Both the position numbers and the translations under genes were made by a program. A stretch of 64,000 nt of DNA from positions 2,046,001 to 2,110,000 of the forward strand of contig JAYWIR010000009.1 in NCBI GenBank assembly GCA_036172245.1. Reading direction: 5' to 3'. The DNA is from Raillietiella orientalis. Its lineage: Eukaryota. The notes beneath the pieces were generated by a model. It searched no databases. It saw only the letters and a list, made by a program, of their open reading frames with translations, and was not told where the DNA came from. Shown here one piece after another: positions 6,501 through 50,685 of this stretch; within the stretch, counting starts at the first letter, position 1; every line of letters begins with the position of its first letter.

Positions 6501-6530
6501 ACGAAACCTTTTCACATGAGCGAGGCTCAG

Positions 6531-14749: not shown

Positions 14750-15157
14750 ATGCTGCATCGTACCATGGGATCGTATCGAGGGACATTAACGTTCCCTGTT
14801 GGACAGAACGATAGGGACGCAATCTGCTCCGTCCTGCGCTTCCTGAGGACGGCAGCCGAATGTTCCCATGTGGGACGTATGCGGACTGAACTTGCCAGTA
14901 TCCTAGGAAAGATGCAGAGGACGACCCAGTGGAACGTGATCCCTCCTCCGTACCCTTGCTTTTGTAAATAGTGCTTTCTTTTTGTGTTTTTGTTTGTCTC
15001 TTCCCCCTCCGCTGCCGAGTCGAAGTCGCCGACCTGAGCGCTGACTACTCGGCAAGTTCAGAATTTTTATCGGATGTTGTAGGGTCTATAGCCCTACACA
15101 TGTTTGTTCGTTTGTTTTGTGAAGAAATAAGCTCACCGGCACACCCTGGGTGTGAAA
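14750..15157 (+). mobile_element. Family A 3' end fragment
   Basis: RTELASILGKMQ matches the ORF2 C-terminus. GTGATCCCTCC at ~14936, T-rich tract, tail AAATAAGCTCACCGGCACACCCTGGGTGTGAAA. Confidence 0.75.
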
Positions 15158-16324
15158 CAGCACCGACTGCTGCCACTTCATGGGGAAGATGCGCGTGTCC
15201 ATGAGCACCGGGAGCCATACCAGGTGTTCCACCGAAACATCCAGCGAATCGCTTAGTGCAAAAGACCATTTGAGGTTGTACTCGGGGTCGCATCTCTGGT
15301 CAGCTTATCCGATTTTCATTTTTCGAGCCCCTTCTCCTTCCCGGGGATTTTCATCAAAACTTCCCATTTTGCCGCGATGGTGCTGCTCAGGTGCTCCCTG
15401 AAAGAGAGCAGCGCTGTAGCGAAGGAAGTTCTTCCTGCCCATGCGGTTTTTCCAGGATCCTCCAGGATCTCTTGGAGCGTGAAACGATTGTTGCGCACGA
15501 ACAGGAATCTTCGCACCTGTTCCGTGCCTTGCTCCTGACTACTCGCCCAGGTGCGACCGGTATTCTGTAGCCAGGAGCTACCCATCGCGGGGCGGCAGGA
15601 GATCCATCCTGAGACCTTCCTCGTAACGGTGGCCACCCTTCGAAGCTGCAATCCGCAATGGGAGATGTGACGGTTAAAGACTGCAACGAAAGACTCAAGT
15701 CCCGCAATGCCGGTGACTGGACTGCACTGCGAGGTGTGCAGAAACGCACCAGTTGGTGCTCCATAGCTTTGCTGCAAGGGCAAGAATCCTGAAATAGAGC
15801 AGAAGCCCCAGCCACTCCCGTGGCAGGAGGCCGACACCGCCATCCCGACGCGGAGCGCACAAGCCTTTCAACCGGACTCGGGACCTAGCTTTGCCGCAAA
15901 CGGCGATGCTCAGAAGGTCCTTCGTCCTCTTCCTACTTCACTGTTTCAAGGAACGAACAAAAAGCAGAAGAAGGAGAAGGGAGCCACGGAAGTGTTACTC
16001 ACCAGGACCCAGGTAAAACCTGCTTCCTTGAAATGGGACTCAAGCCAACTCTCAGGCGGGAACGTTGCCTGTCTCGCTCATTAGCAAGGTGAGTTCCTGC
16101 ACCAGGGGAGTGAGCCCTGCTGCAAAACATTGAAAAACTTTCACTGGCAGGCCGTCCTCTCTGGAGCCTTGAGCCTCTTTAGCTTTCTGATGGCGGTAAT
16201 CATTTCACCCACCGTGAAAGGCTCATCAAGGTTCTTTCTGTCTTCCTCCCCGATCGTAAAGGCCCCTTTCAGGAGCAAGAGTCACACGACATCCCGCTCG
16301 GGAGGCGCCCTGGCATACAGGGAG
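15158..16324 (-). mobile_element. Family A ORF2 linker plus post-RT region (RT core deleted); probable 3' half of the outer nested element
   Basis: SLYARAPPERDV, KAPEDGLP, CAPRRDGG, HCGLQLRRVA, RNNRFTLQEILE and KWQQS. It is cut at 15157 by an oppositely oriented tail and at ~16325 by an oppositely oriented head. Confidence 0.8.
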
Positions 16325-16415
16325 CGTGCGGACGTGTTTTTTCTGCGCTCCTGCCGCGCTAGTTTTCTAAGCCTTTTTTCTATTGTGTTAGTGCGTGGTG
16401 CATCGCCGGTGTCCC

Positions 16416-18438
16416 ATGGCAGGAATGCCTGAGGACACCGCGATGGAAGTTGGTGGGGGAGAGGATGGTTCCTCTCCCCAACCCACAGAGGTGGGGCAAC
16501 CGCCCCCACGGAGGAGAGGGCAACCGCCCCCTTGAAAAAGGGGGCAACCGCCTCCTAGGAAACGAGGGCTACCGCCACCTTGAAAAAGGGGGCAACCGCC
16601 CTCGTGGAAAAGGCAGCAACCGCCCCCTTGAAAAAGGGGACAACCGCCGCCTTGGAAAAGGGCGCAACCGCCCCCTTGAAAAAGGGGGCAACCGCGTCTT
16701 CGGATCCGTTTGCTCCATCCACGAGGACCTGGAGCTCCGTGGCTGCAGCGCCATCTCCTGCAGCCTTAGCAGAACAGCGCGCCTACCTTGAACAAGGATA
16801 CAAGCCGTCCTTGATTTACAAGGTAGGAAATCTGTTTGTGGGAAACACCGCTCGTAACTTTGAAAGAGAGTTACAGCGGTTGGATGTAAAAGAGGAAGAC
16901 CTGGAAGGTCTCTCCGTGATGAGTGGGGGCCAGCGGGTGGAGCTGACTTGCAAAAATTCAAGTCTGGCTCAGCGCCTGCTGAACACTCCCATCACTCTGG
17001 AAGGCCGAAAGGTCTTCCCTGTAACGGAGGACCGCTCCATTGTTGCCCACCTTACCGGTGTAGCTCTTCGCATGACCAAAGCTGGCGTGCAGGAAGAGTT
17101 GCAAAAACATGGTACGGTGCACGCGCTCTGGACCAAGCCCAACGTCTTCCAAACATACGGAAGACTGTTCAGTGGCATGGCTGCAGCGCGTGTGACGGGC
17201 CACGAAAACTGTGTGGGCTGCCCCACAAACTCGACGTCGGCAACGAGGTCGTCGACGTCTGGTACGTGGGCAAGCCCAAGTACTGTGGGCACTGTGATGC
17301 AACAGGGCACCTGAAAAAACGGTGCCCCCACATCCAGTGCTTCCACTGCGGCGAAAAGGGCCACCTGCGGAAGGTGTGTCCTAAACGCGAAACCCCGGCT
17401 CCCCCTGCTTTGAAAAAAGCCAAAGGGAAACGCGCGGGGCGATCGGACAAGCCTAAGGAGGCACCCGAGAGGCGGAACCCACAGCCAGAGCCCGAACCCG
17501 TGCAGCAAGCGCCGGTCGAGGGTACTCCCGACGACGCTGGAGAGAGCGAGGGCTGGCATAAGGCGAAGCCCAAAAGTAAAAAATTAAAGAAAACCGAAGA
17601 ACCGACAGCGGAACCCGCGACATCTTCTTTAAATAGGAGACAACGCCGCGCGTTGCTCCGCGAATGTTCGGTCACTTTGGAGCGTGTGGAGGTCCCCGAG
17701 ACCGCCACCGGGGGAGATATCCCCCGCCTCGCTGACGACGAAGTCGCGACCGCGGAAGGCGAACCCTCTGTGCAAGCAGAGGGGGAGCCTAGAGACGCGC
17801 TCGCCGCAATCGAGGACGCCGCCTTCCAGCAGGCGGCGGAAGAGCTCGCGGCCGAACTCGCGGAGCGTGAGAACGGCGTGAGAAAGGCCTTGCGAAGGCC
17901 GGCCGCGAGCAAGGCACCTCCGACAGGTGACCATGAACCGGATGCCGGAAGTGCGTCCTCCTCCGCGGAGGCGCCTCCGAAGAAGACTGGACGGAAGTCC
18001 AAGAATCCCAAGAGGCGCATCCCGACAAAGAAGGAGGGGGACGCACCGGCATCCGAGGGGGAAGCCGGCAGCGTGGGAACGGAGGGAGGGATTTTCCCAC
18101 CCTCCGCTACCGAGCAGCTGGCGACCCCCATGGAGGAGGGGGATAAGGTGAGTGATTGCCGCCCCCTCCCAACGGTGGAACCTGCTCAGGAGATAGCCAT
18201 GGAGGAGGGGGAGCAGACAGCTGACAACCGCTCCCCCCTGCCGTCCAGCGCAGCCGATGAATCGGCCCCCATGGAAGAGGGGGAGCAGGTGCGTGAAACC
18301 CGCCCCCTTCAACCGTTGCGGTTCGCCGAGGAATCGTCCTCCATGGAGGAGGGAGAAGCGGTGCGCGACGCACCCCCTCCTCCTAGCGTCCCGCCCGACA
18401 AGGTGGCGGGAGCCCCATTGCCAATTTCCCAGGATTAA
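16416..18438 (+). pseudogene. ORF1 (gag-like): two CCHC knuckles and acidic PMEEG repeats; 2 frameshifts
   Basis: Starts MAGMPEDTAMEVG. Contains CGHCDATGHLKKRC and CFHCGEKGHLRKVC. Ends ISQD*. Frame changes near 16495 and ~17200. Confidence 0.85.
16494..16696 (+). repeat. 24-nt tandem repeat (~8-9 copies) in ORF1 N-terminus
   Basis: Unit GGGCAACCGCCCCCTTGAAAAAGG, encoding KKGATAPL-like units. Confidence 0.9.
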
Positions 18439-19244
18439 CACCTGGACTCGCCTGTCGCCGTCGATTACGCGTGGCCTGCTGGAACGTCAACGGGCTGCGC
18501 GACGACGGCAACAGACGGGACACGGCCGCCACCCTGCGTGACTTCGACCTGGCGCTCCTGCAGGAGATCCACGTGATCACCGCGGAGAACGCCCAGGAGA
18601 TCGAAAGGATCGCAGGGGGGCGGCTTGTGTGGCAATGCGGCGCCGGCAAAACCTGTGGGGTCGCGTTCTTCATGAAGCCGGCGGTCGATGCAGCCGTGAA
18701 GGGCGTGCGCTTCGACGAAGCCGGTCGTGTCGGCCAGCTGATTCTCAGGTGGTCCGACGCGATCGACCTCGTCGTAACAAACGTGTACGCCCCGAGCGGT
18801 CCTGCTAGGTACCAGGAACGTGCGGCGTTCCTGGAAACCCTGAAGCGCGACTGGCTGGTGGAAGCGAACGTGCGCAGGGCTCACCTGATTGCTGGAGATT
18901 TCAACCTGCGCCTGCTCTCAGGTGATGCCCACGCACAGGAGCGGACGGCCAACGAGTTGTGCGCTGCCATGCGCACGCGCAACTTGTTGGGGGATCTCCC
19001 GGGAATGGCCAACAGCATCGACCATTTTTTCCTGGATGCTGACCTGTGTCCACGGGTCGGCAATCGGGGGAGAGTTGCGTCGACGCTGTCGGACCATTCC
19101 CGGCTAATTATCGAGGTATGCCCGCGCGACAAGGGTCCCCCTTCCAGGGCGTGGCGGCTGCCTGGGGACTGGACGCGACTCTCAGGTGCGGAAGAACATC
19201 TTCGCCAATTCCTGAGAGGCGTCACCCTCCGGAATCTCGCTTGA
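18438..19244 (+). pseudogene. APE endonuclease domain of ORF2, truncated by an insertion
   Basis: WNVNG, LQEIH, NVYAP, AGDFN, IDHF and LSDH motifs. Confidence 0.9.
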
Positions 19245-22200
19245 AACCCGGGTGCGCCGGGACGTTTATTCTCACGAATAAACCTATATAATCTGTGACT
19301 GGACCGGTAGTCCAGCCACTCCCTGGAAAGATATAGCTTGCCGGGCTACCGGTGCGCAGACCGGCGCGGTCGACCTCGGCAGCAGAGGGGAGGGGGAACG
19401 AAACAAAAAGAAAACAAAAAAATAAACAAAAATCAGGGAGGGAGCGGGAAGGGATCACAGTCTGCTGGGAGGGTCCGTCATCCTCTGGAGGATGCCGGCA
19501 AGCTGTTTCTGCGTGTGTGGTTCCAGATGGGGCCATCGCGTCGCCATCCTGAGGAAACGGGCGGCATACACGTTGGCATCCCTGTCGCTGGATCCTCCCG
19601 TCGCTTTGCTCCATGCCACGACGATCCCGTGTAGGCAGCACAGGGCTGCAAGCGAGGCCGCTGGAGGCAGGGCGTCACGGACGAAGAGGGGGCGCAAAGC
19701 GTCTCTGGGGTTGCCTCCGGGGATCCCCAGGGCTGCGGCAAAGCGTTCCCACAAGGGACGGAGGGCAACACAATCCACTAACAGGTGGGGGAGGTATTCC
19801 CTCTCCCCGCACCTGACACAATTAGGGTTGACACCCCCCCGCGTCCAGTGGTGTCGGCGGGCGTTGCAAGGAAGCCCCCAATGCAACACCAGCAGTGCCG
19901 ACTGTTGCCACTTCATGGAGAGGGTGCGCGAGTCCATGAGCACCGGGGGCCACTCGAGATGTTCCTCTGGAACATCCAGTAGCTCTCCCCAGCGCAAGAG
20001 TCCATTTGGGGTGGTCCTCGGGGTCGCAGCGTTGGTGAGCTGACCCGTTCTCCAATCCCCGATCTTCTTTGCCCTGCTGGCGATCTTGACAGTAACCTCC
20101 CATTGTGCCGCGACGTCGCTGCCCAGATGTTCCCGTAGGGTAGGCAGTACCGTAGCAAGGGAGGTTCTTTGTGCCCACGCTCTCCTTCGGGGATCCTCGA
20201 TGATTTCTCGGAGCGTGCGGTAAGCATGCGGCCCGAAAAGAGCTATTCGCTAGTGTTGCGGGCTCTGCTCCTGAATCATCGCCCACGTGCGCACGGTTTC
20301 CTGCAGCCAGGCAGGACCGTTCGCGGGGCGTACGAGGATCCGCGCCGAGTTGTTCTTCACGAGCTTTGCCGCCCTCCGAAGTTGAAGTCCGCAGTGGCAG
20401 ATGGGGCTTCGGAGTGCAAAGTAGGACGAGAGTCCCGCATTGCCGGTGGCCCGCTCGACGAGGAGACGTGCAGGGAGGCACCAAGGGGTGCACCAATTTT
20501 CTGCCATAAAGGCGACAACTCGGAACTGGAGCTGTAGCTCCAGCCGCTCCAACGTCAGGAGGCCCAGACCACCATCCCGACGAGGAGCGCACAAGTCCGA
20601 AAGACGGACTCGGGGCCTCCCTCTGCACCAAAGGGCGATCCTCAGGAGGTCCTTCGTCCTCTTCTTTGACTCCGCTGAGGGGGGGCAAACAAAAAGCAAG
20701 GGGCGAAGGAGGGGGGCCGCAAACGCGTTCCACGCCGCGGCCCGTTCATGCAGGAAGAACCTGCGGTCCTGGAACGGGCCGATCGCCGCCTGAGCCTTCT
20801 GAAGGCAGCCGGACCACGCTTCCGCAGGGGAGTAATCTCCCAACGGCACACCAAGGTACTTGAAGTACCTCACCGTGGGGATCCCCAAACGGACCCAGTC
20901 CTGCTGCCCTGCCCACGCCGCTCCGACTGGCATTACGGACGACTTCGCCCTGTTTACCGTCAGTCCTGTTCCCCGACTCAGCAGGTCGAAGAATTCCTCG
21001 ACCGCCGAGGCCGGGGTGGACATAGGCAGCAGCAGCAGAAGGTCGTCCGCGTACGCCGAAACCGCAGGCGTACCGGGACAATCGCACGGCAGGTGCGCCA
21101 GAGTCTCCCTGTACGCTCTCAGCACCAATTCGAAATAGGCGCTGAAGAGCAAGGGGCTCAGGCTGTCTCCCTGCCGTATGCCGCGTCGCACCGGTACGCC
21201 GTACACGGTGGATCCACTAAAAAAGACATTAATAAGCGCGTCGCGCCAGCTGGAGCGCAGGTAGGCCAGCAAAGAGGCCGGGAAGCCCAAGCGTTCCAGA
21301 AGATCCAAAAGGAGATTCTGGTCGACTCAATCGAATGCTTTGTGCAAATCGACTGCGACCGCGAGGGCTCCTCTCCCCTCCCGACCATCCCGTCCCCCAC
21401 CAACGGACGCACCGGAATTCCGGTTGCTTATTATGCTCCTTCCTTGTTGGAGCTCTAACCATGTGGAAGCGTGGAACAGGTTCGCCTCCATACTTCGCCC
21501 GGGAACAGCATATGTCTGTTCCGAGCTGATGAAGATGTTGGCGACCCGTCCCAGGCGCTCTGCCCACAGCTTGGCTAGCAACTTAGCGTCCGCATTCACT
21601 ATTGTGATGGGACGCCAGTTGTTCATGCTCCTAAGGTCTCCTCCTTTAGGGAGGAGCCGCACCTTTGCTGAACGAAACGAGGTGGGAACGTCACCTGTTT
21701 CGCGGATCAGCAAGGTGAGCTGATGTACCAGGGGAGTAAGCTCTGCCGCGAAAGTTTGATAAAACTCCGCAGGCAGGCCGTCCTCCCCTGGAGCCTTTCG
21801 CCTCTTGAGCTTTCCGATGGCCGAGAGGATCTCGTCCATCGTGAAAGGCTCGTCAAGGGTCTTTCTCTGCTCCTTTTCGATCGCTGGAGCGCCTTCCGGA
21901 AGCAGGAGTCGTGAGACGTTCCTCTCCGGAGGTGCCCTGGCATACAGGGAGGAGTAGTAACTCCGCAGCAGGCCGCGGATTTGGGCAGGTGCCGAGTGCT
22001 CCTGGCCCTGATCGTCCAGTAAGCTGGCCGATCCGGACTGCCAGGCTTGCCTCTCGGCTCCCGCTTTGTATTCCGCCAGCCTGCGGATGTCAAGGGTCCT
22101 GGCGTGATGACGGGCTTGCAGGTAGGCTCGTTCGTTACGGACCCCGGTCCCAAAACCCGTAGGTAGGCGCTGCAGAGGGAACTGGTTGCAGAACTCCTGG

Positions 22201-23418
22201 ACCGACCGCTTGAAGCGGTCCCAATCCTGGAGTGTCCGCAGCCTGAAGCTCCGTATGAACGTGCGGAGATGTTCCGCCGCGTCCGGGAGCTTCAGCCAGT
22301 CCCCTGGGAGACGCCACGCTGACGAGGGGGGGCCCCTGTCGCGCGGATGGATCTCGAGGACTAGCGGGCGATGGTCGGACAGCTCGCACGGTAACTTGCC
22401 GCGCCTGCCCAAGCGAGGGCACAGGTGCTCGTCAAGAAACACGTGGTCAATGCTGTCGTCCATCCCCGGTGCACTGGCCAACAAATTACAGGTGTGCACC
22501 GCCATGCACACCTCGTTGACCAGGTCACGCTCGGGATTCTGCCCATCTGGTTTCAGGCGAACGTTGAAATCGCCTGCAACCAGATGGGCATTCCGCACGC
22601 CTGCTTTGGTCAGCCAGTCGCGCCGGAGGGCAAGGAAAAACTCTTTCCTCGCCCTCCTGTTCATCAGGTCCGCGCCGCTCGGTGCGTACACGTTCGTGAC
22701 GATCAGATCGATCGAGTCGGACCACCTGAGAGTCAGCTGGCCGACACGACCGTGATCGTCGAACCGCACGCCCCGAGCCGCGGCCTCGACGGCTGGCCGA
22801 AGCAGGTAGGCGACACCGCAACTTTTCGCTCTCCCACACCTGTACCATAGCCGCCCTCCGGAGATCCGTTCGATCTCTTGCGCTTGTTCTGCAGAGATCA
22901 CGTGGATCTCCTGCAGCAGCGCAAGGTCGTAGGACTCCAGAAGGGCGGCCATGTCTCGTCTCCTGCCGGCGTCTGTCATGCCGTTCACGTTCCAAACGGC
23001 GATGCGCAGACTACGGCGGGAGGAGATTCCCGGCATTACTGCTGGGAAGATTAAGGTGTGGGGGAGCCCACCTCTTGTGAGGCAGGCGGGATTTCCATGG
23101 TGGTTTCGGCCTTTTCAGGCACCTGAGGCACCTGTTCGGCCTCCACCCCCTCCATCCCCTCCGTGTCCGCGCGTGGGAGTCTTTCGGGCGACGGGTCCCG
23201 AGAGTTTCTCACGCTCATGGCACCCTCGCTTGCGGAAGCCATCTCTTCCCCCTCGACGGGGGAGACGAGCTTCCTTGGCTTTGTGGACTTACGTCCAGCC
23301 TTCTTGCGGGGTGCCGTGGAAACGGAGGCTGCGCTTCCGGCCTCCACCTCGGGGTCGGAAGTGGGTGACTCCTGAGGGGAGGCCGGACGCCTTACGGCCT
23401 TCTTGCCAGCCTTGGAGG
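19241..23418 (-). mobile_element. Family A element, 5'-truncated in ORF1; has the most complete ORF2 (APE-RT-zinc finger)
   Basis: ORF 23036-21327 covers APE and RT N-part, then a TGA where other copies read C in AFDC. In-frame ORF 21308-20250 has QGDSLSP, YADD and KYLG. C-terminus CVRCGEREYLPHLLVDC. Tail at 19241-19270. Confidence 0.95.
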
Positions 23419-26400
23419 TTTACACCCGGGTACGCCCGGGGCGTTTATTTTCAAAAAACTCTACATCCGCGGTACAAGGCCCCGCTCACGGCCATATGCA
23501 CTGGACCTGCCGGGACGCCGGGACGCAGCCCAGCGTAGCGTTCCTCATCAGCGAAGGGGGATGGGGATAAAACAAAAAGAAAAATAAAGAATAAACAGAC
23601 AAAAAGAAGTTGGAGGGCAGGGAAGGGATCACTAAACGCTGTGAGGAGGGCCCATCCGTTGAAGGAAGCCCTCGAGGTCCGTCCGTATATTCCCCAGTTG
23701 GGACCATCCGGCAGCTCTCCGCATTAAGCGTTGGGCGTATGGGATGACATCCCTCGCGTGTGTACCAACTCCTTCGTTCTTGGCGTCGCTCCATGCCGCC
23801 ACGATACCACGGACGCAGCTCAAGGCTGCGATGGCTGCGGCTGGCTGCAGTGCGTCCTTCGCGAAGAGGGGCCGAAGAACGTCTCTGGGGGTGCTGCCCG
23901 TAGGGAGCCCTAGGGTCGCCCCGAACCGTTCCCAAAGGGGTCGGAGGGCAGCACAATCCACAATAAGGTGGGGGAACGACTCCCGCTTTCCGCACCTGGC
24001 ACAAGCAGGATCCACAGCTCCCCTCGTCCAGTGGAAGCGGCGCGCGTTGCGGGGTAGACCCCAGTGCAACAGGAGCAACGCCGACTCTTGCCACTTGAGG
24101 GGCAGCATCCTGGATTCCTTCATCACCGGGGGCCACTTCAGCACATCCGTAGGGATGGCGAGCAGCTCGCCCCATCTCAACAATCCACGCGGCTGGACGC
24201 TCGGTGTCGTGGCGTCCGCCAGTTCTCCTGTGGTCCAGCCGCTTAACATCTTCTCCCTGCCTGAGATCTGGCAGGTGACTTGCCACCTTGGCTTCTGGCG
24301 ATCCTGAAGCGCCCTTAGGAGGTAGGGCATCGCCGTAGCAAGGGGGGTCGTCAACGCCCACCTTTGACTCCGGGGAAATTCCAGTATTTCCCGCAGGGTG
24401 CGGTTGGCGTATGGGCCGATTCGCAGGCAGTTCATGTTGTCTTCTCTCCTCCGGTTCTGCTTGGCCCATGTGCCAGCAGTCTCCTCCAGCCAGGCGGAGG
24501 AGTTGGCGGGGCCACAAACCATCCAACCGTTCGTCTTCGCCAGGGTTGCTATGCGTCCGAGCATAAGGCCGCATCTTCGGATCTTCCGGCCAGGGCACAG
24601 AAGAAACGACGCGAGTCCTTCGCATCGGGACACACGCCTGGCGAGGAGGCGGGCCGGAACGCATCAAGGGGTGCTCCACATCTTCGCTGCGATGGCGAGG
24701 GTTCGCCACCGCAGCTGGATTTCCACGCGCTCCAGCGTCAGGAGGCCAAGGCCGCCGTCCCGACGCGGAGCGCACAAGTCCCTCAGAGGGACTCGGGGCC
24801 TCCCCTTGCCCCAAAGGGCGATACGTAGGAGGTCCTTCGTCCTCTTTTTGCATTCTCTGGAGGCGGGGCAAACAAAAAGCAAGGGGCGGAGGATGGGGGC
24901 CGCAAAAGCGTTCCAAACCGCGGCCCGTTCCGGCAAGTGAAACTTGCCTTCCAGGAACGGGCCGATCGCCGTCTCAACTTTTTGAAGGCAGCTGGACCAC
25001 GCTTCCGCAGGGGAGTAATCTCCCAACGGCACACCAAGGTACTTGAGGCACCTCGCCGTGGGGATCCCCAGACGGACCCAGTCCTGCTGCCCTGCCCACG
25101 CCGCTCCGACTGGCATTACGGACGACTTCGCCCTGTTCACCGTCAGTCCTGTTCCCCGACTCAGCAGGTCGAAGAATTCCTCGACCGCCGAGGCCGGGGT
25201 GGACATAGGCAGCAGCAGCAGAAGGTCGTCGGCATAGGCTGCTACGGCGGGCGTGCCGCGGCACGAGCTCGGCAAGGGGGCCAAAGTCACCCTGTAGGCT
25301 CTCAGCACCAACTCAAAGTAGGTGCTGAAGAGCAGGGGACTCAGGCTATCGCCCTGCCTGATGCCCCGCCGCACCGGCACGCCATACACCTTCTGACTAC
25401 TGAAAGAGATGCAGATTATCGCATTCCGCCAGCAAGAGCGCAGGTAGGTAATCAAGGAGGGTGGGAAGCCCATGCGACCCAGAAGCTCCAACAAAAGCTC
25501 CTGGTCAACACAGTCGAACGCCTTATGGAGATCGACATGTGGCCCGTTGACATTCCAACAGGCCACGCGCATCCAACGGCGACAGGCGAGCCCAGGTGTT
25601 AATCCTGGGAAAGTGGCAGTGCGGCGTCCGCCACCTGGTCGGGCGGAACGCTTGGAGGCGGACGGGTCGGTGCGTCGAGCACCTGTTCCTCCTCCTCCAT
25701 TGGTGTCGGCGCGTCAGGCGGATCGCCCGAAGATGTGGTCGCGCCTACCTGATCGCCCTCCTCCATAGGGGCGGGCTGTTCGGGTTCGGCGCATGTAGGG
25801 TTGGCTTCGTTACCCTGCTCACCTTCCTCCATAGGCGTCGCCTGTGCGCCGGCTTCCGAGCGTGGTAGTTCCCCCTCCGGGTTTCCCACGCTGCCTTCGG
25901 CTTCCGGCTTCTCCTCCTCGTTCGAAGCGGGAGGGCACCTCTTGGGCTTTTGGGACTTACGTCCTGCCTTTCGAGGAGGTGTCTCCGCGGAGGATGATGA
26001 GTTTCCGGCCTCCCGGTCGGACTCACCTGCGGGAGGCATTTTCCTCGGAGCCGGCCTGCGGACGCCCTTACGCGACGGGGTTCCGCGCTCGGCGAGCGTT
26101 GCCGCGAGCTCCTCCGCGGCCTTCTCGAAGGCCGCGTCATCGCTGCCTGCCAACGTTGCCGCGGGCTCCTCCGCGACCTTATCAAACGTGGCGTCCTCGC
26201 TTTCGGAGCGCGAGTCTCGCGTCTCACCCTCTAAACATAGAGTGAGCTCGTCCACGCTACTTTCGATCGCGACCCCATCAGCTGTTTGCTGAACATTGCC
26301 GCGGGCGACCTCCGCAGGAACGGCTAAGCGTTCCAATGCCACCGAGCACTCGCGGAGTTTTTTTGAAAGCGGCGCGGCTTTTTTCTTTTTGCCGGCAGTT

Positions 26401-27493
26401 TTCTTCTCCGAATTTTGCTCTCCCAGAATCTTCTTTTTTTCTTTTCTGACCTTAACCAGTTGCCATCCCTCCTCCACTTCCGCGTCTTCCGCGGTTTTAT
26501 CCTCCGACGCCTGGGTGGGAGAAGGTGGAGATGGCGGCTGGGGCTGGCCATTGTCACGCGCTGGTCTTTCCACCAGCTTTCCGCGCTTTCCCTGTGCCTT
26601 TTTGGCAGCAGGGGGCACCGGGGTGGGGCGCTTAGGGCACACGCGTCGCACGTGCCCCTTCTCCCCGCATAAGTGGCACACAATGTTCGGGCACCTTTTT
26701 CTAAGATGCCCTACTGCATTGCGGTAGCCACAAAATTGGGGTTTCCCCACAAACCAAAGGTCTACCGGTTCTTGGCAGACCTCCAGTTTGTGGGGAAGCG
26801 CACCACCCTCTTTCACCGTGACACGGGCCGCGGCCTGGCCTCCGAAAATGCTATTGAAGCCATCAAAAATCGTAGGCTTCGGCCACAACGCGTGCACTTC
26901 CCCGTGCTTCCGCAGCTGATCACCAACCGCTGACCGCGTCATGCGGCTGGTGATCCCGGTGAGATGGATCACTACAGAGGGGTCCATCATCACCGGCAAG
27001 ATCTTCCGACCATCAACGATGAGCGGGTCGGTGATCAGGCGTTGGGTCAAGGTGATATCTTTGCATACCACCTCGACCCGCTGACCCCGCTGAGGACGGA
27101 GAGGCCGTCAAGATCATGCTCCCGAATATTTGCGTTCTGCAGCGCCTTCGAGAAGGCGCGTGCAGTCCGCCCATCAATTAATGGTCCTACCTTATATATG
27201 AGCGAGGGTTTATATCCTGCTGCTCGGTAGGCCATTTGTTCCGCCAAGGCTTCGGCGCTGGGCGCTGCCACCATGGCACTCCAAGTCCTCGTCTGTAGCG
27301 GCGGGGACGATTCCGGGGCGGATGCCCCTGATCCAGTAAGCTGTGGGGGCGAACTAGCCTCCCCCACGCCTACTTCCATCGCGGTGTCCTCTGGCAACGC
27401 AGCCATCGGACACCGACGATGTGAACGCACAAAACACTTGAAGAAAAACGCTCCTCTTGCCACGCAGGCGGAGCGACGGAAAAACACGTCCGC
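23419..27493 (-). mobile_element. Family A element with both ends and an internal deletion of APE and RT N-terminus
   Basis: Head GCGGACGTGTTTTTCC at 27493. ORF1 ~27407-25599 with a frameshift at ~27070. ORF2 reads VACWNVNG-PH-VDLHKAFD, then YADD and CARCGKRESFPHLIVDC. Tail at 23419-23449. Confidence 0.93.
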
Positions 27494-30432
27494 TCACCAC
27501 AAGAGGGTTTGGTGAAAGCGTGCGTAACGAGAGATGGTATTTACAATCTCGATGTTACGCGCGAATACCAGACGTACGCTGGCTAGCCGAATACCGTGCG
27601 GGAGCCGAGAGGCAGGCGTGGCAATCCGGGTCGGCCAGCTTACTGGACGACCGGGGTTCGGAGCACTCGGCCCCCGCCCAGGTAAAAGGCTTATTAAAAA
27701 AATTCTACTCCTCCCTGTACGCGCGCGCTCCACCGGAACGGGATGTCTCGCGACTTCTTCTTCCGGAAGGCGCTCCGGCGATCGGGGAGGAAGATAGAAA
27801 GACCCTCGACGAGCCTTTCACGGTGGGCGGGATCATCTCGGCCATCGGAAGGCTCAAGAGGCGGAAGGCTCCAGGGGAGGACGGCCTGCCAGCGGAATTT
27901 TTTCAATGTTTCGCGGCAGAGCTCACTCCTCTGGTGAAGAAACTCACCTTGCTGATCCGCGAAACGGGCGAAGTCCCCGCCTCGTTTCGTTCGGCAAAGT
28001 TGCGTCTCATCCCTAAGGGAGGAGACCTTCGGAGCATGAGCAACTGGCGGCCGATTACCGTGATAAACGCGGACGCCAAGTTGCTGGCGAAATTGTGGGC
28101 TGAACGCCTGGGGCGGTTAGCGGAAAGCTTCATTAGCCCGGAGCAGACATATGCTGTTCCCGGGCGGAGCATGGATGCCAACCTGTTCCTCGCCAGCACC
28201 TTTTTCGCGCTCCAACAGGAAAGGGTCAGGATGGGCAACCGGACTTCCGGAATGTCCGCCGCTAGGGAACGGGTTGGTTGGGGGGGGAGGGAGCCCTCGC
28301 AGTCGCAGTCGATTTGCATAAAGCATTCGACTGTGTCGACCAGAGGCTCCTCCTGGAGCTCCTGGAACGCTTGGGATTCCCGGTCTCTTTGCTGACCTAC
28401 CTGCGATCCTGCTGGCGCGACGCGCTCATCCAGATCTTTTTCAGTGGACACACCGTGCACGGCGTACCGGTGCGACGCGGCATACGGCAGGGAGACAGCC
28501 TGAGTCCCTTGGTCTTCAGTACCTACTTCGAGTTGGTACTGAGAGTGTACAGGGAAACTCTAGCGCACCTGCCGCGCGACTATCCCGGTACGCCCGCGGT
28601 GTCAGCATATGCGGACGACCTACTGCTGCTGCTCCCTATGTCCACTCCGGCATCGGCGGTCGAGGAGTTCTTCGACCTGCTAAGTCGGGGAACAGGACTG
28701 ACGGTGAACAGGGCGAAGTCGTCCGTCATGCCAATCGGTGCGGCGTGGGCAGGGCAGCCGGACTGGGTCCGTTTGGGGATACCCACGGTACGGTACTTCA
28801 AGTACCTCGGTGTACCGATGGGTGATTATCTCCCTTCGGATGCGTGGTCCAGCTGCCTTCAAAAGGTAGAGACGGCGATCGGCCCGTTCCAAGGCCGCAG
28901 GCTTTTCCTGCCGGAACGGGCCGCGGTGTGGAACGCATTTGCGGCGCCCCTCCTCCGTTCCCTGCTTTTTGTTTGTCCCCCCACCCCAGAAACTAAAAAG
29001 CGGACGAAGGACCTCCTAAGGATTGCGCTGTAGGGTAATGGGAGGGCCCGAGTCCGGCTTGAGGACTTGAGCGCTCCGCGTCGGGACGGCGGTCTCGGCC
29101 TCCTGACGCTAGAGCGGCTGGAGCTCCAGCTCCAGTTTCGGTTATTCGCCCTAGTGGCGAAATATTGGAGTAGCAGTTGGTGCGAGCCCGCACGTCTCCT
29201 CGTCGAGCAGGTTACAGGCAAGGTGGGACTGTCATCCTTCCTTGCGCTCCGTCGGCGCCGCCTTGTCGGTCACTGCGGGTTGTAGCTACGGAGAGTGGCT
29301 GACCTGATGAGGAAGAACGCAGGATGCCTCTGCTGTCGCCCCGTTAACGGACCTGCATGGCTGCAGGAAACGGTTCAGACGTGGGCAAGGAACAACCAGC
29401 AACGCACCCAAGAAGGGCCGACACAATTCTTCGCCCGTAATGACCGCCTGACGCTCCGGGAGGTCCTGGAGAACCCCTAAAAACGAGCGTGGGCAAGAAA
29501 AACTCCCCTCGCTGCAATGCTGTTTCCGCTCGCGGAACATTTAAACGGCAACACTGCTGCGAAATGGGATGTTGATGTTAAAATCTCCGGAACGGAGAAA
29601 AAAATCGGGGAATGGAAAACGGGGATTCTCTGCGATACTGCGGCCCGGATTACCACCCCTATTGGACTTGAGCGCTGGGGCGAGCTGCTAGATGTTCCGC
29701 GGGAACAATTAAAGTGGCCCCCGCTGTTGATGAACACCTCCACCCTCCCCTTAAAATGGCAGGAGTCGGCGCTATTGTTGCTGCATTGGGGACTCCCCTG
29801 CAACGCCGACACCATTGGACCTGGGGAGCGGCGAGCCCCAATTGTGCGAGGTGTCGAGAACGGGAGTCCCTCTCTCATCTTCTTTTGGATTGTGTGGCTC
29901 TTCGGCCCCTTTGGAACCGTTTTGCCGCGGCAATCGGTATCCCCTGTGGCAACCCCAGAGACGCAGTTAGATCTTTCTTCGTTTGCGACGCCCTTCGGCC
30001 TTCGGCCTCGTTAGCAGCTCTGTGCTGCTTTCGCGGGATCGCTGCATGGAGCAAGGCAACGGGAGGACCTCGCGATAAGGGTGCCGTCCAGTGCGCAGCC
30101 GAATTTATGCGGACGGCGACAGGATGGACCCTTCTGGATTCAAACATCCAAAAACAGCTTGCCGGCATCCTGCAAAGGATGTAACGGCCCCACAGCAGAC
30201 TGTGATCCCTTCCCGAGCCCCCCAGATCTTGTTTTTTTATATTTCTTATTTTTGTTTTATTTTTTTGTTTTGTCCTTGCCCCCTCTGCTGCCGTGGTGGA
30301 CCGTACCGGAATACGAACCGGTGACCCGGCAGGCTTAATTCTGTGTACCAGTGCGTGGCCGGACCACCAGATCAGCCACCAACGCTTGTTTTATTCGAAA
30401 GAATGAACGCCTTGGCGCAACCGGGTGAGAAA
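27494..30432 (+). mobile_element. Family A ORF2 linker-RT-zinc finger and tail; probable 3' half of the middle element
   Basis: GFGESVRNER, KAPGEDGLPAEFF, NWRPIT, DLHKAFD, YADD and CARCRERESLSHLLLDC. GTGATCCCTTCC at 30202. Tail at 30402-30432. Confidence 0.93.
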
Positions 30433-31740
30433 CGAGCTCCCGGACGGCCAAGCTCCGGAGATGCTGGCGGAGGTGCTCCGCAGCCTCCGGATTTCTAAAC
30501 CAGTCGGCCGGCAACCTCCAGACGTGCGTCGGAGGGCCCTTGCCAGGCGGGAGTAGCTCAAACTCCAGCCTGTAGTGGTCGGAAAGCTCGGACGGCACGG
30601 GACCTCTTCGACCCACCCGACAATGCAGGTGATCGTCGAGGAACACATGGTCCGGCAAAGCACGCATCCCGGGATCGTCGGCCAGCAAATTCGAGGCGTG
30701 CACGGACGCGCACACCTCGTTCACCAGCCGTTTCTCCCGGCGACGGTGAGACTCCTCCGCTAGCGCGTGGACGTTGAAGTCCCCGGCTACGAGGTGAGCC
30801 ACGTCGGGGCCGGAGTTGCTGAGCCAGCGGTCGCGCAGTCTCTCGAAAAACTCCAGTTTCTCGGTGTGACGCGCGGAGCCGCTCGGCGCGTACACGTTCG
30901 TGACGACAAGGTTGATCGATTCGGACCACTGGAGAACAAGTTGGCCCACACGACCTTCCTCGTCGAAACAAACGCTCCGCACCGCTCCCGCCACCCTGCC
31001 CCGGACAAGGAATGCGACTCCGCAGGTATTCTGGGAGCCTGACCTCCAATGGAGCGTCCCGCCTGCGCGAACTTGCAGATCGGCCGCTTGCTGCTCGGAG
31101 AGTGCGTGAATCTCCTGCAGCAGGGCCAGATCGAAGTCGCGCAAGACGTTGGCAACCAATCGCCTCTTCTCGTTGTCCTGCAGCCCGTTGACGTTCCAAC
31201 AGGCCACTCGGACGCCACGGGAAGAAGCGAGACCGCGCATTGCTGCTACGGACATGGAGGTGCGTTCCTCGCCCCGTCCGGCGAGGCATCAGCCGGGAGC
31301 ACGGCGGATGGGGGAGCGCAAGCGCTTCCAGTCTCCGCCGCGCCGCTCGCGGCTGGCTCGGTGGAGTCGAGGACCATTGCCTCGGGCTCCGAGGAGCATC
31401 GGGAAGCGTTTTTGGCATCAGGCTCTTGCCTGGGAAGTTTGGGCTTGCGCGCAGCCCTGGGTTTAGCCGGGGCTTGGCGAGCCTTTGCGCTGCCCTCGGA
31501 TCCACCTCGGAGTCGGAATTCCGCACGCGTGGCGGGTGTTTTGCCTGCCGTGTCCTTGGCTGGCAGCTCGGAGCTGGTCCAGAATTCTTAGAGGGTGCTG
31601 TCGGCGTCGATCGCCCTTGCAGGGTCGCGAAGTCGGCACCTCCCCTTCCTTCGCGGGTGACTGCGACAGCGCGCGCAAAGGCAGCGGAGGCTTTTTCGTG
31701 CGCCTTTCTTGGCGCGCGGGACTGCCTCTTCTCCCCGCCT
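30433..31740 (-). mobile_element. Family A ORF1 C-terminal part plus APE domain; probable 5' half of the outer element
   Basis: MRGLASSRGVRVACWNVNG...AGDFN...LSDH...AEHLRQHLRSLAVREL, cut by a + strand tail at 30432. Confidence 0.88.
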
Positions 31741-31749
31741 ACCTTATTG

Positions 31750-32313
31750 ATGGGAAAGTGTGAAGGATCTCGTGGTTTCCGTGCAAGAAGCGAAGTGCAC
31801 GCATTGTGGAGACGCGTGAACCCTGTCAAGAAGGTTCTCCGCCTCTCTTGCGTACTCGGCACAACGCGCGTCACCATGGACAACCGGAGGCTGCTTCCTT
31901 CGCAGCGCCTCTTTGGTAACGCCGTCGTGTGTCTTCGTCTCGCCGGACAAACCCCGGCTTGCGGCAACCGCGGCAAGGAAGGCCACCGTCCCCAAAAGTG
32001 CCCCTCTCACAATTGCAACTCATATTTTTATGGGGTCGCACGCGTTTTTGTCAAGCTCCCGAGAGCGAAACCAAGTAGGAAGTTTTCGCTAATGTGGAAG
32101 TGCGGCCGCTGGAAGGCAGAAATGCCTGAAGACGCCGCAGTATTTGCGACGGGAGACGTGAGCCCGAGGTCTGCCAGAATTTCTGCGGTCGTTAAGCGCT
32201 CGTCGAGGCTTACTTTCTCCTCCTCCCCTATGGCCCGGGGATCCGTCCGTGAGCAGGAGCCGGGAGGCGTCCCTTTCCGTCGGTGCCCAGCCATATGGGG
32301 AGGAATAAAAAGG
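31750..32313. mobile_element. Scrambled family A pieces: + ORF1 middle (31750-32020), + head (32032-32162), - ORF2 linker (32163-32313)
   Basis: EVHALW...TRVT...CGNRGKEGHRPQKCP on +. 32032-32162 matches 34004-34133. FYSSPYGWAPTERDASRLLL on -. Confidence 0.7.
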
Positions 32314-32889: not shown

Positions 32890-34002
32890 AGAACCTACAA
32901 TTTCAGAATTCTTAGGGTTGTGTTTATGTAATACTTAGTTGCTTACCTGTTTGGAGGGGTTTATCTGGAATTTTCTATAAGATGAAGCTAAGTAGTGTGA
33001 CTGAAACGGAGAAATAAAGTTAGGTATTATGGATTGGTTTCTAAAGTTATGCTGCATTTTGGTTCGGTTTTCGTGTAGCCATAGAAATGACTCTCCCCCT
33101 CTTGTTTTTGATTGTCTCATTCTTGTTTTTATTTTCTCATGTCGACATTTGGTTTTGTGTTTCTTCTAATTTGGATTCACAGAAAGTTTGCGAAAATCTG
33201 CACCGTTGGTATTACTTAAGAACTGATTTCCATTTTGCTTCCCTTCTTCGAAATTGAACTCATGAAAGCAGTTCTAGAATATGTTTCTCCTCTTAAAAAA
33301 AGAAGTCGTGGTCGGAACTTTTCGAAATTATCCACTTGAACGTGAACTGGTGGTTTCCCGTCTTTCATAGCCATCAGCATCCTCCATCAGCCGTCTCCTT
33401 CCCATCCATGATTTGAGGGCTTCTTTTGCGTCTGTTGGTTGTAGTGCGGATGTTTGCCTCATTGGTATAGGAAATCTTTCTTTAAGTTTCAAGAACTGCT
33501 CCGAACAGCAGCCACGGCGAATCCATCTTTTACTGAAGGGTTCTGTTTTCCAAAATGGCTGGCTGATTTTGTTGGTCTCCTTCTTTGGTTTAACAGGTTT
33601 CTTCGCCACAGGGCATTCTTTTAGCGTCGTTGAGTTGATTTTGTTTCACACGCCCGGTGCTTTCTGTCTGAGGGGGGTGATGAGCTTCACTCCTCATTTC
33701 TCCGTTATGCTGCTGCTGAGCTATTCGAGCTTATTCCTTGAGTGATGACAGCGCTACGGAGAGAAAACTTTTTACAGCTCACGCCCATTCACTGGGATCC
33801 TCCAGGAACTCTCGGAGCGTGCAACGGCTGTTTCGCATGATCGGGAACCGTTGCACCAGTTCCATGTTTTGCACCTGGCTTCTGGCCCACGAGCAAACGG
33901 TCTCCTCTATGCAGGTTCTATCGCTATTGGAACGGCAGTGGATTCATCGCAAAATCTTCCCTTTCACGCTTCTCACCCTCGGAAGACGCAGCTCACCTTG
34001 CT

Positions 34003-34963
34003 GGGGGTCGCAGGCGTTTTTGGTGAGCTCCCGTGAGCGAAACCAAGTAAGAGTTCGAGTGTGTGTGGAAATGCGGCCGTTGGAAGGCAGAAATGCCAGA
34101 AGACGCCGCAGCATCTGCGACGGGAGGCGTGAGATCCACGTCTGCCCAACCCATGGAGGTGGGGTCGTGCCCCACCACAAATCGGCCCCTGCCGCCCCGG
34201 CGAGGGCATGGAATAAAGTGGCTGAGACGGCTCCCCCGGACGTAGCCGCGGAAGTGCAAGCCTACATAAAGGGGGGCTACAACCCTGCCCTCCTTTGCAA
34301 GGTAGGAAATTTAGGTTACGCCATCCGTCGGATGGGAATAACAGACGAGGAGATTCTGTGCTTCTCGGTCCGGAGCGGCGGACAGTTCGCAGAATTCATC
34401 TGCAGAGATGCAGCGCTCACGCACAAACTGCTCTGCACGTCCGTGCCTTTCGAGGGACGTAATCTCCTCCCTCACACGGTGGCTCACTCGATAGTGATCC
34501 ACCTCACAGGAACAACGCTGCGGATGGGCAAGGAAGCCATCCGTACAGAAATTAGCAAGTTCGCGGAGAGTTAACGCCATGTGGAAGAAGCCCAACGCCT
34601 TTACTTATGGAGGCGCATTTAGTGGGCGCATGGCCGCTCGCGTAACTGAGGAGGGCGTCGCGATTGCCCCACCTGGATCCAAGCATAGAGCAAGAGCTTG
34701 CGGGCATCCTGCAAAGAATGCAACGGCCCCAGCAGCTACAGTGATCCCTTCCTGTACCCTCCCACTTTTTCTTTTCTTTTTGTTTTGTTTTTTTTGTTTT
34801 TCCCCCTTCCCCCTGCTGCTGTGGTGGACCGTTCCGGTCTGCGAACCGGTGGCCCGGTAGGCTCTGTGTTTCTTCGTGCGTGGCTGGAGCAATGGTCCAG
34901 CCACTGCACGTCTTTGTAAATGTTTGTTTTATAATAAACGCCCCGGCGAAATCCGGGTGAAAA
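34003..34963 (+). mobile_element. Short internally deleted family A derivative (head + ORF1 N-half + ORF2 end + tail)
   Basis: MPEDAAA..., GYNPALLCKVGNL and RMAARVT are joined at ~34665 to HLDPSIEQELAGILQRM. GTGATCCCTTCC at 34741. Tail at 34933-34963. Confidence 0.85.
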
Positions 34964-35497
34964 TCAAACGCCTTGCGGAGATCGACCGCAACCGCCAAGG
35001 CACCCGGCGCTTCCTCAGGCCGAATGCAGCGACGCCTAGCCCCGGCAGCCGCAGATGCGGTTGCCTGGCTGTCGTGCGCCACACAACGTTGCTGCTCGAG
35101 CCACGTGCGCGCGAAGAACAGGTTCGCCTTCATGGACCGCCCGGGAACAGCGTAAGACTGCTCTGGACTTACCACGGATCCAGCGATCCTGCCTAGGCGC
35201 GCCACCCACAGCCTGGAGAACAACTTGACGTCCGCATTCACCAAGGTGATCGGACGCCAGTTGCTTAAATGGCGCATGTCTCCGCCTTTCGGCAAGAGAC
35301 GCACCCTTGCTGAGCGAAACGAGGCCGGGACATTGCCCGTCTCTCGCATCAGCGCAGAAAGCCTCAGCACGAGGGGGATGAGTTCCGCCGAAAAGCACTG
35401 GAAGAACTCCGCAGGCAGACCATCCTCACCTGGCGCCTTGCGAAAAAGCGCCAACCGAAAAAGAACACCACAGCCGGAGCGCCAGAATGCACGTCCG
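34964..35497 (-). mobile_element. Family A head fused directly to RT N-terminal part; truncated at KAFD by an antisense tail
   Basis: CGGACGTG...GCGCTCC head at ~35497, then RKAPGEDGLPAEFF, NWRPIT and AVDLRKAFD. Confidence 0.85.
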
Positions 35498-35526
35498 AAC
35501 AATCGCGGGGGGTCGGTCCGGTGTTG

Positions 35527-36013
35527 TTTATCACCCGGGTGCGCCGGGGCGTTTATTGAAAAACTATCCGGGAACAGAGTTCCCGGACAAAGGATACAGA
35601 GAAGAGGAAGGGGGTGGGATCCCCGACACGCAGGTCGGTATACCGAAAGTCCGGAGTTCGCTGACGTCGCGACCATGCCCCACTTTATTTCTATGGCATT
35701 CTTTCATTGATCTGTCTGAGAGAACAACCACTCAGAAACCTCCTCTCCCGTCCCTAAGCAGTGCTGCCAGGGTGCGATCATCAAGCCGGTTAGTCCGTAA
35801 AAGACGGTTCCAGCGGTTTCACGCTCAGGGAGAGACGGTATGCCTCGTCATCATGGCTGTGCTTTCTCCGAGATTGGAGGAGTTTCGTGAGAATCACACT
35901 CTATCAAAGATCCTGATGAAGTATGATTTCCGGTGTTGTGTTGGCCGTTAGTGGGCCCATGTACCACGTTTTGTATGTTTTTGTAATAAACGCCTCGCCA
36001 TACGCGGGTGGCA
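35527..36013. mobile_element. Segment bounded by two outward-facing family A tails
   Basis: TCACCCGGGTGCGCCGGGGCGTTTATT at 35531-35557 (minus tail) and AATAAACGCCTCGCCATACGCGGGTG at 35985-36010 (plus tail). Confidence 0.6.
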
Positions 36014-36580
36014 ACGCCAAATCCGGGGGGCAGGCAGTGCATGGGGAACTCTTCGCAGAACTCGCGGACCGAGGTTCATCAGCCCCACGCCAACTGCCCG
36101 CCTACCCAATCGAACCCAGTTTTTCAGAGTTTCGAAAACGAAAACTACAATAAAAAACGCCTGACGCGATTACTTTCTTCAACCACGGTTGTGCGTAAAC
36201 GTGAACTTTTTATAGCAGCATTTATGGTGGGTGTCGAATTATTAGTTGTCGAATTAGGTGAATCTTTCTGCATTATAAAAACGCTATGGAGCTTTCTGTC
36301 TTCCTCGTTTAATAGCACAAGTTGCTTTTCTTAATTATGTACTGAAATACGTACTATTTGTATTCATGAACTGTTGAAGAACGTTGTTTGTGAAGTTACA
36401 GTTTGGACTCCACTAATTGCATTCATCTTTCGTGAACTGACATCTACTGCTTCGGACTCTGGAAGTTCGTGGTGGATTTCCAAAATATGTTGCTCTGTTT
36501 CAAATACCTTGTCATCCATTTTTCAACATCATCTTAATGTTTCCCTGCATATGTTTTTAAGAATTTGTCATGATAAACTT

Positions 36581-42506: not shown

Positions 42507-42509
42507 AAG

Positions 42510-47638: not shown

Positions 47639-47641
47639 GGT

Positions 47642-50672: not shown

Positions 50673-50685
50673 AAAAGGGGAAGGC

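Follow-up and report, generated by a model that had tools for sequence, protein, structure and literature searches.

Antisense nesting of an L1-superfamily retrotransposon family at one codon of its own ORF2 in Raillietiella orientalis

The locus described here lies in a 64,000-nucleotide (nt) stretch of the Raillietiella orientalis genome (assembly GCA_036172245.1, contig JAYWIR010000009.1, positions 2,046,001 to 2,110,000 of the forward strand), hereafter referred to as the window, with coordinates counted from its first letter. Between 15.2 and 32 kb, the window consists of copies of a single GC-rich long interspersed nuclear element (LINE) family; the G+C content of this region is 59-63%, compared with 33-55% in the background. 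The copies form three nested layers, comprising an outer copy on the minus strand, a middle copy on the plus strand and an inner tandem of two copies, B and A, again on the minus strand. In both the outer and the middle copy, the second open reading frame (ORF2) is interrupted at the same nucleotide, directly after the CTC codon for Leu295 (numbered according to the ORF2 frame of copy A), by the complete 3' tail of another family member in antisense orientation. In total, about 23 of the 64 kb could be assigned to the family, a value that describes its local density.

The family shows the organization of a LINE with two reading frames. ORF1 contains a CCHC zinc knuckle, detected as PF00098 in copies B and middle, whereas ORF2 combines an N-terminal apurinic-endonuclease-like (APE) domain (PF03372, E 6e-13 to 4e-17 in copies A, middle and outer) with a downstream reverse transcriptase (RT) domain (PF00078, E 4e-11 in copy A). 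Among solved proteins, human L1 ORF2p is its nearest relative (E 5.6e-34), with R2 proteins matching at about 4e-5. Judged by this relationship and by its domain order, the family belongs to the L1 superfamily of APE-type LINEs. A poly(A) or A-rich 3' end is typical of L1 proper, but none of the 10 family tails in the window contains an A-run. CCHC zinc knuckles in ORF1, as present in copies B and middle, are usual for the Tx1 clade without being exclusive to it. The family is rather isolated: among 1.84 billion representatives, 42,963 matches were obtained at E <= 0.001, the best being a metagenome fragment with 73% identity and the next a sea-turtle protein with 35% identity. Ten cluster look-ups, two of them with organism names, provided no clade name, and none of the 33 proteins returned by a profile search was named Tx1 or L1. 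Scans with the tail pattern yielded 12 metagenomic loci, none containing the LINE family, one unrelated bacterial match among genome contigs and no match among viral contigs.

The three-layer architecture had been proposed in a preliminary description of the window made from its letters, and the anatomy obtained by tblastn and blastn searches bears it out. The outer copy (minus strand) is split into an APE part (30434..31288; residues 11-295, frame open), with an upstream part extending to about 31740, and a 3' part (15159..16326), delimited by tblastn, blastn and flank alignment, in which the RT is covered, with internal deletions, from about ORF2 residue 389 up to the region of ORF2 codon 1073; no other piece of the nest is as decayed. 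The middle copy (plus strand) is likewise divided. Its 5' half (16328..19238) comprises the full 5' terminus, ORF1 with a 24-nt repeat and the CCHC knuckle, and the APE domain up to Leu295 (CTC), and its 3' half (27494..30433) starts in the linker between the APE and RT domains (residues 316-320) and continues through RT, the C-terminal region and the 3' untranslated region (UTR) to the tail GAGAAAC. Between these halves lie the two inner copies, both on the minus strand. Copy B (23418..27493) has a full 5' terminus, an intact ORF1 of 502 residues and the tail GTAAAC, and it carries an internal deletion that fuses APE residue 45 to the RT motif VDLHKAFD. Its tail directly adjoins the truncated 5' end of copy A (19239..23417) to form a head-to-tail tandem. 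Copy A starts in the C-terminal region of ORF1, ends with the tail TTCAAGC and has a 3' UTR with AATAAA and a short GC hairpin; its ORF2 spans 1,219 codons, with two in-frame stops (TGA at 21327-21329 and TAG at 20250-20252) as the only disruptions and no frameshift.

Since the first 14 nt (GCGGACGTGTTTTT) of the middle copy (from 16328) and of copy B (from 27493) are identical, both elements are full-length at their 5' ends. Disabling mutations increase from the inside to the outside, consistent with the nesting order, from 2 in 1,219 codons of copy A to 6 in 1,175 codons of the middle copy (with four stops and two frameshifts in the 896 codons of its 3' half) and 10 in the 387 codons of the outer 3' part (three stops and seven frameshifting indels). 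The N-terminal part of the middle ORF1 harbors a 24-nt tandem repeat at 16493-16695 (8.4 copies, 79% matches), which encodes ATAPLKKG-type repeats; copy B lacks this array. On the right-hand side, a plus-strand ORF1 fragment (31744-32030) meets the 5' part of the outer copy head to head and is followed by a motif resembling the 5' terminus at 32036 and a minus-strand linker fragment (residues 386-436) at 32163-32310. As far as can be read from these fragments, the nest reaches past the boundary assigned to it initially, covering 31744-32310 as well.

The two insertions into APE-containing hosts are joined to them with single-base precision at their 3' ends. At junction J1 (19238..19239), the sense strand of the middle copy (...CCGGAATCTC) runs into the antisense tail of copy A: the plus-strand APE frame stops at ...CGG AAT CTC (19238), and the reverse complement of a family 3' tail begins at 19239. 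At junction J2 (30433..30434), the tail of the middle copy meets the antisense of the outer copy's ...CCGGGAGCTC, so that the minus-strand APE frame stops at ...CGG GAG CTC (30434) and the reverse complement of the plus-strand tail begins at 30433. When the ORF2 of copy A was used as a tblastn query, the middle host (18399-19238) aligned with residues 14-295 and the outer host (30434-31288) with residues 11-295; both thus end at the same residue and, by nucleotide comparison, at the same nucleotide, with a complete canonical tail (...CCGGGT plus 7 nt) adjoining CTC without filler. A single inverted alignment of 3,697 columns (18444-22091 versus 31234-27571, 73.8% identity) crosses both junctions without a gap. 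The uninterrupted homologue of the site is found in copy A on the minus strand (22229..22230), where the sequence reads ACA CTC^CAG GAT TGG (22230/22229). Behind the full-length 5' end of each insert, at 27493 and 16328, the host resumes in the linker, about 62 nt (middle) and about 285 nt (outer) past the site, and neither insertion is associated with a target-site duplication. The 3' junctions are therefore precise, and the 5' junctions involve a target deletion. The preliminary description had anticipated most of this picture, including the shared codon with antisense tails, the gap-free match of the two junctions, the position of the insert heads against the opposite-strand linker, the loss of target DNA and the intact site in copy A. 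Its two junctions also exist, with coordinates that need to be shifted by 1-2 nt to 19238/19239 and 30433/30434. As regards its label "Tx1-like", the evidence reaches as far as an affinity to the L1 superfamily.

The coincidence of J1 and J2 would carry little weight if both were descended from one event. However, hosts and inserts alike belong to lineages that diverge by 26-40%, with ratios of nonsynonymous to synonymous change (dN/dS) of 0.2-0.33 across both junction flanks. The two host APE regions are 60% identical at the nucleotide level (dS 1.31, dN 0.43), and the RT regions of copy A and the middle copy, representing the insert pair, show a dN/dS of 0.21-0.26; Fisher tests support purifying selection in the flank comparisons with p values of 1e-13 to 8e-20. 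Both host APE frames have remained free of stops (0 of 279 aligned codons in the middle and 0 of 281 in the outer copy). In simulations, a neutral change of 0.20 per lineage left both frames open with a probability of about 1e-4 and a change of 0.08 per lineage with one of about 2%, so that no more than a small share of the 40% divergence post-dates the disruption. On account of the low dN/dS values, the open host frames and the continuation of each host just past the site, the sequences identify J1 and J2 as independent insertions of different lineages into different lineages.

These data also bear on the idea, already raised as an alternative in the preliminary description, that a single ancestral composite of APE end and antisense tail was later duplicated in inverted orientation. 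Such an origin would readily produce a gap-free inverted alignment of 3.7 kb across both junctions, but we find it hardly credible: the arms differ by 26% overall and by 40% in the APE region, dN/dS is low on both sides where a dead composite should approach 1, and the open state of both frames would be very rare under neutrality. Moreover, the ends of the arms match the host continuity beyond each insert, similarity around J1 and J2 is not raised relative to the surroundings, and hosts that resume just past the site behind full-length 5' ends are not predicted by an inverted duplication. A duplicated dead composite was therefore rejected as the source of both junctions on the grounds of dN/dS, open frames and geometry. 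The inverted arrangement is also reminiscent of the 5' inversions that L1 elements generate by twin priming, in which both arms derive from one RNA and have adjoining coordinates. The arms of the nest, in contrast, stem from lineages that have diverged by 26-40%; they are 60-82% identical, overlap in their coordinates and show a dN/dS well below 1, and we have discarded this explanation.

Further information on the insertion behavior of the family comes from its other tails. A tail profile built from nine of the 10 tails in the window recovered the tenth with an E value of 0.005 (three rows with E > 1 were ignored). Each of the 10 ends in ...CCGGGT and a further 5-8 nt, in most cases G-N-N-AAAC, at a distance of about 26 nt downstream of AATAAA. 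The tail hairpin (CCCGG/CCGGG) is paired in 92% of cells and shows one compensatory change, but its covariation is not significant, with 43 of 500 shuffles doing as well and the sequence itself being conserved. Two tails lie at Leu295, three in antisense orientation elsewhere in ORF2, three in same-strand tandems and two, at 8771 and 10584, next to non-family DNA. The tail of W3 (14801..15158, plus strand), a short 5'-truncated copy ending in GTGAAAC at 15158, lies in antisense orientation at approximately codon 1073 of the outer copy's ORF2 and has taken the place of that copy's own 3' end. W8 (33950..34962, plus strand), an internally deleted copy in which the N-terminus of ORF1 is joined to the 3' end, has its tail antisense in a further minus-strand copy, host H, directly after the RT motif KAFD (residue 595); the RT part of host H (34963..35520) covers residues 410-595, and H resumes at 33948-33795. 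The same host contains two short tail pieces, W5 and W9, arranged head to head (35526..36015). The tail of W5 (minus strand) ends at 35526 against H residue ~412, and that of W9 (plus strand) ends at 36015 in antisense orientation against H residue 321, about 78 nt downstream of the Leu295 site. Both tails point outward, and residues 322-410 of host H are missing, an arrangement that gives the impression of reverse transcription starting at the two ends of a single break and in this respect resembles twin priming. The adjoining linker fragment of host H (36016..36095, minus strand, residues ~290-321) retains the Leu295 region in decayed form. In a multiple alignment, it showed a 26-nt deletion after CTC, suggestive of a third breakpoint at the same nucleotide; this claim was dropped because an in-frame solution that lacks the deletion is equally good in a pairwise global alignment.

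In all five nested events of the window (J1, J2, W3, W8 and W9), the upstream part of the host is joined to an antisense tail. The tails of the same-strand tandems, at 23418 (B to A), 35526 and 42509, are each followed by a 5'-truncated copy, with the family flank at 42509 beginning 170 nt away. Additional 5'-truncated copies outside the nest occupy 6421-8771 (plus), 10584-11684 (minus) and 42509-44046 (minus), the last of which has an AT-richer tail (…ATCCGGGTGAAAAAAC). Of the four copies in the window that include the linker region, two have an insertion at the codon and a third has one 78 nt downstream of it; the innermost and youngest of them, copy A, is intact. A sequence-specific LINE would place the great majority of its copies at one target, and in this one window only 2 of 10 tails lie at Leu295. 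Together with two antisense tails in APE regions that we found in contigs of a public sequencing run, X1, the eight tails at other places argue against the notion that the family inserts at this codon alone. The best reading is that Leu295 is a hot spot of a family that more generally inserts antisense into its own copies, without strict site specificity.

We consider it reasonably probable that the Leu295 CTC acts as a preferred nick site for the repeated antisense self-insertion of divergent, once-active lineages. In this process, a family member would retrotranspose in antisense orientation into a resident copy of its own family, starting with a nick in the sense strand of that copy, preferentially right after the Leu295 CTC in the endonuclease-RT linker, where two hosts of 60% identity have been hit. 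The 3'-OH at the nick would then prime reverse transcription from the extreme end of the incoming RNA, whose tail, ending in ...CCGGGT plus about 7 nt without poly(A), would give rise to a base-precise 3' junction, and the 5' end of the new copy would finally be joined to the host further downstream, so that between 62 and about 950 nt of host DNA would be lost and the target would not be duplicated. Target-primed reverse transcription is the established mechanism of LINEs, and its initiation from a sense-strand nick is suggested by the fact that the host sense strand runs 5' to 3' into the tail complement in every nested event. The outer copy would have been inserted first, followed by the middle copy into the outer and B-A into the middle copy. 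B-A probably arrived in a single event that involved a template jump from the A RNA to the B RNA; both this tandem and the internal deletion of copy B would fit template jumps. The determinant of the preference may lie in the sequence or structure preference of the endonuclease or in the exposure of the non-template strand of transcribed copies, and the latter would explain the antisense rule.

Several observations weigh against this proposal. To begin with, the insertion sites have no clear target motif in common. The three versions of the Leu295 site share nothing but CGG-N3-CTC, and this pattern occurs four times on the sense strand and once on the antisense strand of copy A. The tetranucleotide CCGG is found within 14 nt in 4 of 9 junction flanks, compared with 7.5% of background windows (p = 0.003), but it was picked post hoc, and the flanks of J1 and J2 are homologous sites; neither pattern is decisive. 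The Leu295 site lies within a 54-nt imperfect palindrome (z = -3.55; none of 200 shuffles folds as well), yet among the 825 windows of copy A, those that contain it come only 47th, 62nd and 143rd. There are, furthermore, antisense tails at residues ~80, ~89, 321 and 595 and at about codon 1073, so that Leu295 is not an exclusive target; the first two of these come from run X1, in which one contig has a plus-strand tail against an A-like APE at about residue 80 and another an antisense tail near residue 89 of a middle-like APE, each being a single contig and one having a side of 25 nt. If the three same-strand tandems are counted as sense insertions, the orientation bias is reduced to 7:3. There are also only two hits at Leu295, both in a window that was chosen because of them, and junction-spanning reads are absent from the material shown.

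The last point touches on the possibility that a repeat-induced chimera of separate copies was created during assembly. The region is dense in related repeats, and run X1, the only public run found, contained 25% of the sampled words in the form of short contigs (262 contigs, mostly 90-99% alike, with 33 at least 99% alike). None of the contigs listed bridges 19238/19239 or 30433/30434, which is uninformative either way, and three rows (30983 to 19246, 27507 to 23423 and 23898 to 19738) were left unused, as they lack orientation. An artefact nevertheless appears very improbable, given that copies differing by 20-40% are unlikely to be collapsed and that four junctions fit a single nested geometry with matching host coordinates. 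Contig depth, which is not a measure of copy number and thus a weak indicator, was about 4-7 in both halves of the middle copy and 0-1.9 in the outer parts.

The main rival of a sequence-level preference is a chance coincidence within a self-nesting cluster, such as one generated by the targeting of a chromatin domain or repeat island, as in the case of centromeric LINEs. By simple arithmetic, a given pair of insertions into an element of about 6.1 kb would share both nucleotide and orientation with a probability of about 8e-5, and any two of five antisense nested junctions would do so with one of about 1.6e-3, a value that applies to a window selected for the coincidence. Given that very many windows were scanned, an event with a probability of 1e-3 is expected to turn up somewhere. 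Seven of the 10 tails directly adjoin family DNA, one more is separated from a family fragment by 170 nt, and the junctions occur at many positions. There is also precedent for such behavior in ZeppL and Celine, which, according to the available accounts, nest without a sequence-specific target, with ~7% of Celine elements being self-nested. On the other hand, chance alone does not readily produce an exact match in nucleotide and orientation between hosts of only 60% identity, a third hit 78 nt away in a third host, and five nested events that are all antisense (0.5^5 = 0.03). Taking both sides together, we regard chance as fairly unlikely.

In yet another scenario, the RT would have stalled at the structured linker while copying the RNA of the host element, switched to a free antisense complementary DNA of another family member, copied this from end to end and returned to the RNA upstream of the structure. 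This copy-choice process would account for inserts that are complete at both termini and lack a target duplication, the host segment that it would have skipped contains the imperfect palindrome, and template jumps are evident in the family, as seen for the B-A tandem, the internal deletion of copy B and the W5/W9 pair. We still judge it improbable, because two nested layers would call for a nested antisense template made in advance, the lengths of host DNA lost vary between 62 and about 950 nt with unrelated end points, and the palindrome is unremarkable within the element. To our knowledge, there is no precedent for such a process.

Returning to a preferred nick at Leu295, DNA structure as its determinant was retained as a lead only, since much stronger hairpins of copy A carry no insertion. 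The strongest local DNA hairpin of this copy (22534-22593, in APE-coding sequence) has a stem of about 20 bp and a folding energy of -24.5 kcal/mol in a 60-nt window; it is insertion-free here. The Leu295 site is located three codons before Trp298 (W298), a residue that is invariant in 33 aligned L1-like ORF2 proteins, and it is tempting to speculate that the segment near this residue may be conserved enough to act as a shared target. A different part of ORF2 shows an accumulation of breakpoints, with three unrelated ones in a stretch of about 40 nt that surrounds the RT motif AVAVDLHKAFD (21327-21420 in copy A, 25536 in copy B, ~6560-6602 and 34963). They correspond to the internal deletion of copy B, the point at which strong homology of the copy at 6602 ends on its 5' side, and the W8 tail after KAFD. 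Just upstream of this motif, copy A contains a G-rich run (GGTGGGGGACGGGATGGTCGGGAGGGGAGAGG) that could stall reverse transcription in the manner of a G-quadruplex.

Beyond the family, the window contains an exon of the DPH1 type at 57090-57851, which shares 54-62% identity with DPH1 from many invertebrates and vertebrates and points to an animal source. It forms an open frame of 254 codons on the plus strand (Pfam PF01866, E 7e-62), and no other clear host gene was seen in the window. Two stretches on the minus strand, 45650-47978 and 50010-50705, are remnants of other LINE families with a distant relationship to this one (25-52% identity to the family in RT and 27-29% in APE), and the segment 52001-56000 (G+C 39-46%) shows a strong strand asymmetry, with a GC skew of -0.29 to -0.44.

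Both a preference for particular targets and self-nesting have been described for other LINEs. Among Tx1-clade families, insertion occurs preferentially into particular regions of other transposons, each in a fixed orientation (PMC4494074). The crocodilian Tx1-Mar, for instance, prefers two regions of Mariner-N4_AMi, with the opposite direction used in one region and the same direction in the other, whereas other crocodilian families favor long terminal repeat (LTR) retrotransposons or Harbinger transposons (PMC4494074). The passages on this behavior refer to cases in which other Tx1 copies flank a Tx1 or SINEU copy and make no reference to self-targeting at a fixed ORF2 codon (PMC4494074). 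The present family resembles these elements (Tx1L in Tx1D; Tx1-Mar) in being an APE-type LINE of the L1 group with apparently preferred regions in a transposon and an apparently fixed orientation, and it also has a defined 3' end rather than a long poly(A) tail. It differs from them in that its preferred host is its own ORF2, that insertion destroys the coding capacity of the host copy and that the preference is not exclusive. Self-nesting, in turn, is known from Zepp and ZeppL of green algae and Celine of poplar, which are described as L1-type LINEs forming clusters of copies nested in each other. The clusters of ZeppL and Celine are attributed to centromere or chromatin targeting, and Celine is reported to produce target duplications of 10-30 bp and to prefer a short A-rich motif. 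In contrast, the copies studied here hit an identical nucleotide in two hosts, are antisense throughout and cause target deletions without duplications.

Template jumping is known to generate head-to-tail LINE arrays, both in vitro, as found for the RT of R2, and at telomeres, as in the case of HeT-A and TART. Similar arrangements are seen in the B-A tandem and at 35526 and 42509, where a tail is followed by a 5'-truncated same-strand copy, but within the window such tandems are located inside antisense nests and not at chromosome ends or in ribosomal DNA. The present case joins the two known themes of target preference and self-nesting, with its own ORF2 as an antisense target and with deletions at the target. 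A LINE family that targets its own ORF2 in antisense orientation was not described in the full-text literature searched, whose coverage excludes many older subscription papers.

If the match between J1 and J2 arose by chance, the locus represents an ordinary repeat nest. As a more far-reaching possibility, which we put forward only tentatively, the family may home in antisense orientation into a conserved codon of the endonuclease-RT linker, in both its own and rival ORF2 copies, such that each jump would kill a resident and possibly active competitor, while the resulting kilobase-sized inverted repeats could feed family-wide silencing by small RNAs. The usual view of target-preferring LINEs is that they look for "safe havens" in multicopy RNA genes, microsatellites or other transposons. 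If a family favored the coding region of its own relatives as its haven, its insertion would do no harm to the host genome and would be lethal to the competing copy. The inverted family repeats could yield double-stranded RNA, self-growing repeat islands would arise, and a site defined by a few dozen bases around one codon would offer a compact natural substrate for studying how the APE and RT domains choose strand and site. If true, homing of this type would provide a built-in form of lineage competition and self-limitation that is undescribed for non-LTR elements.

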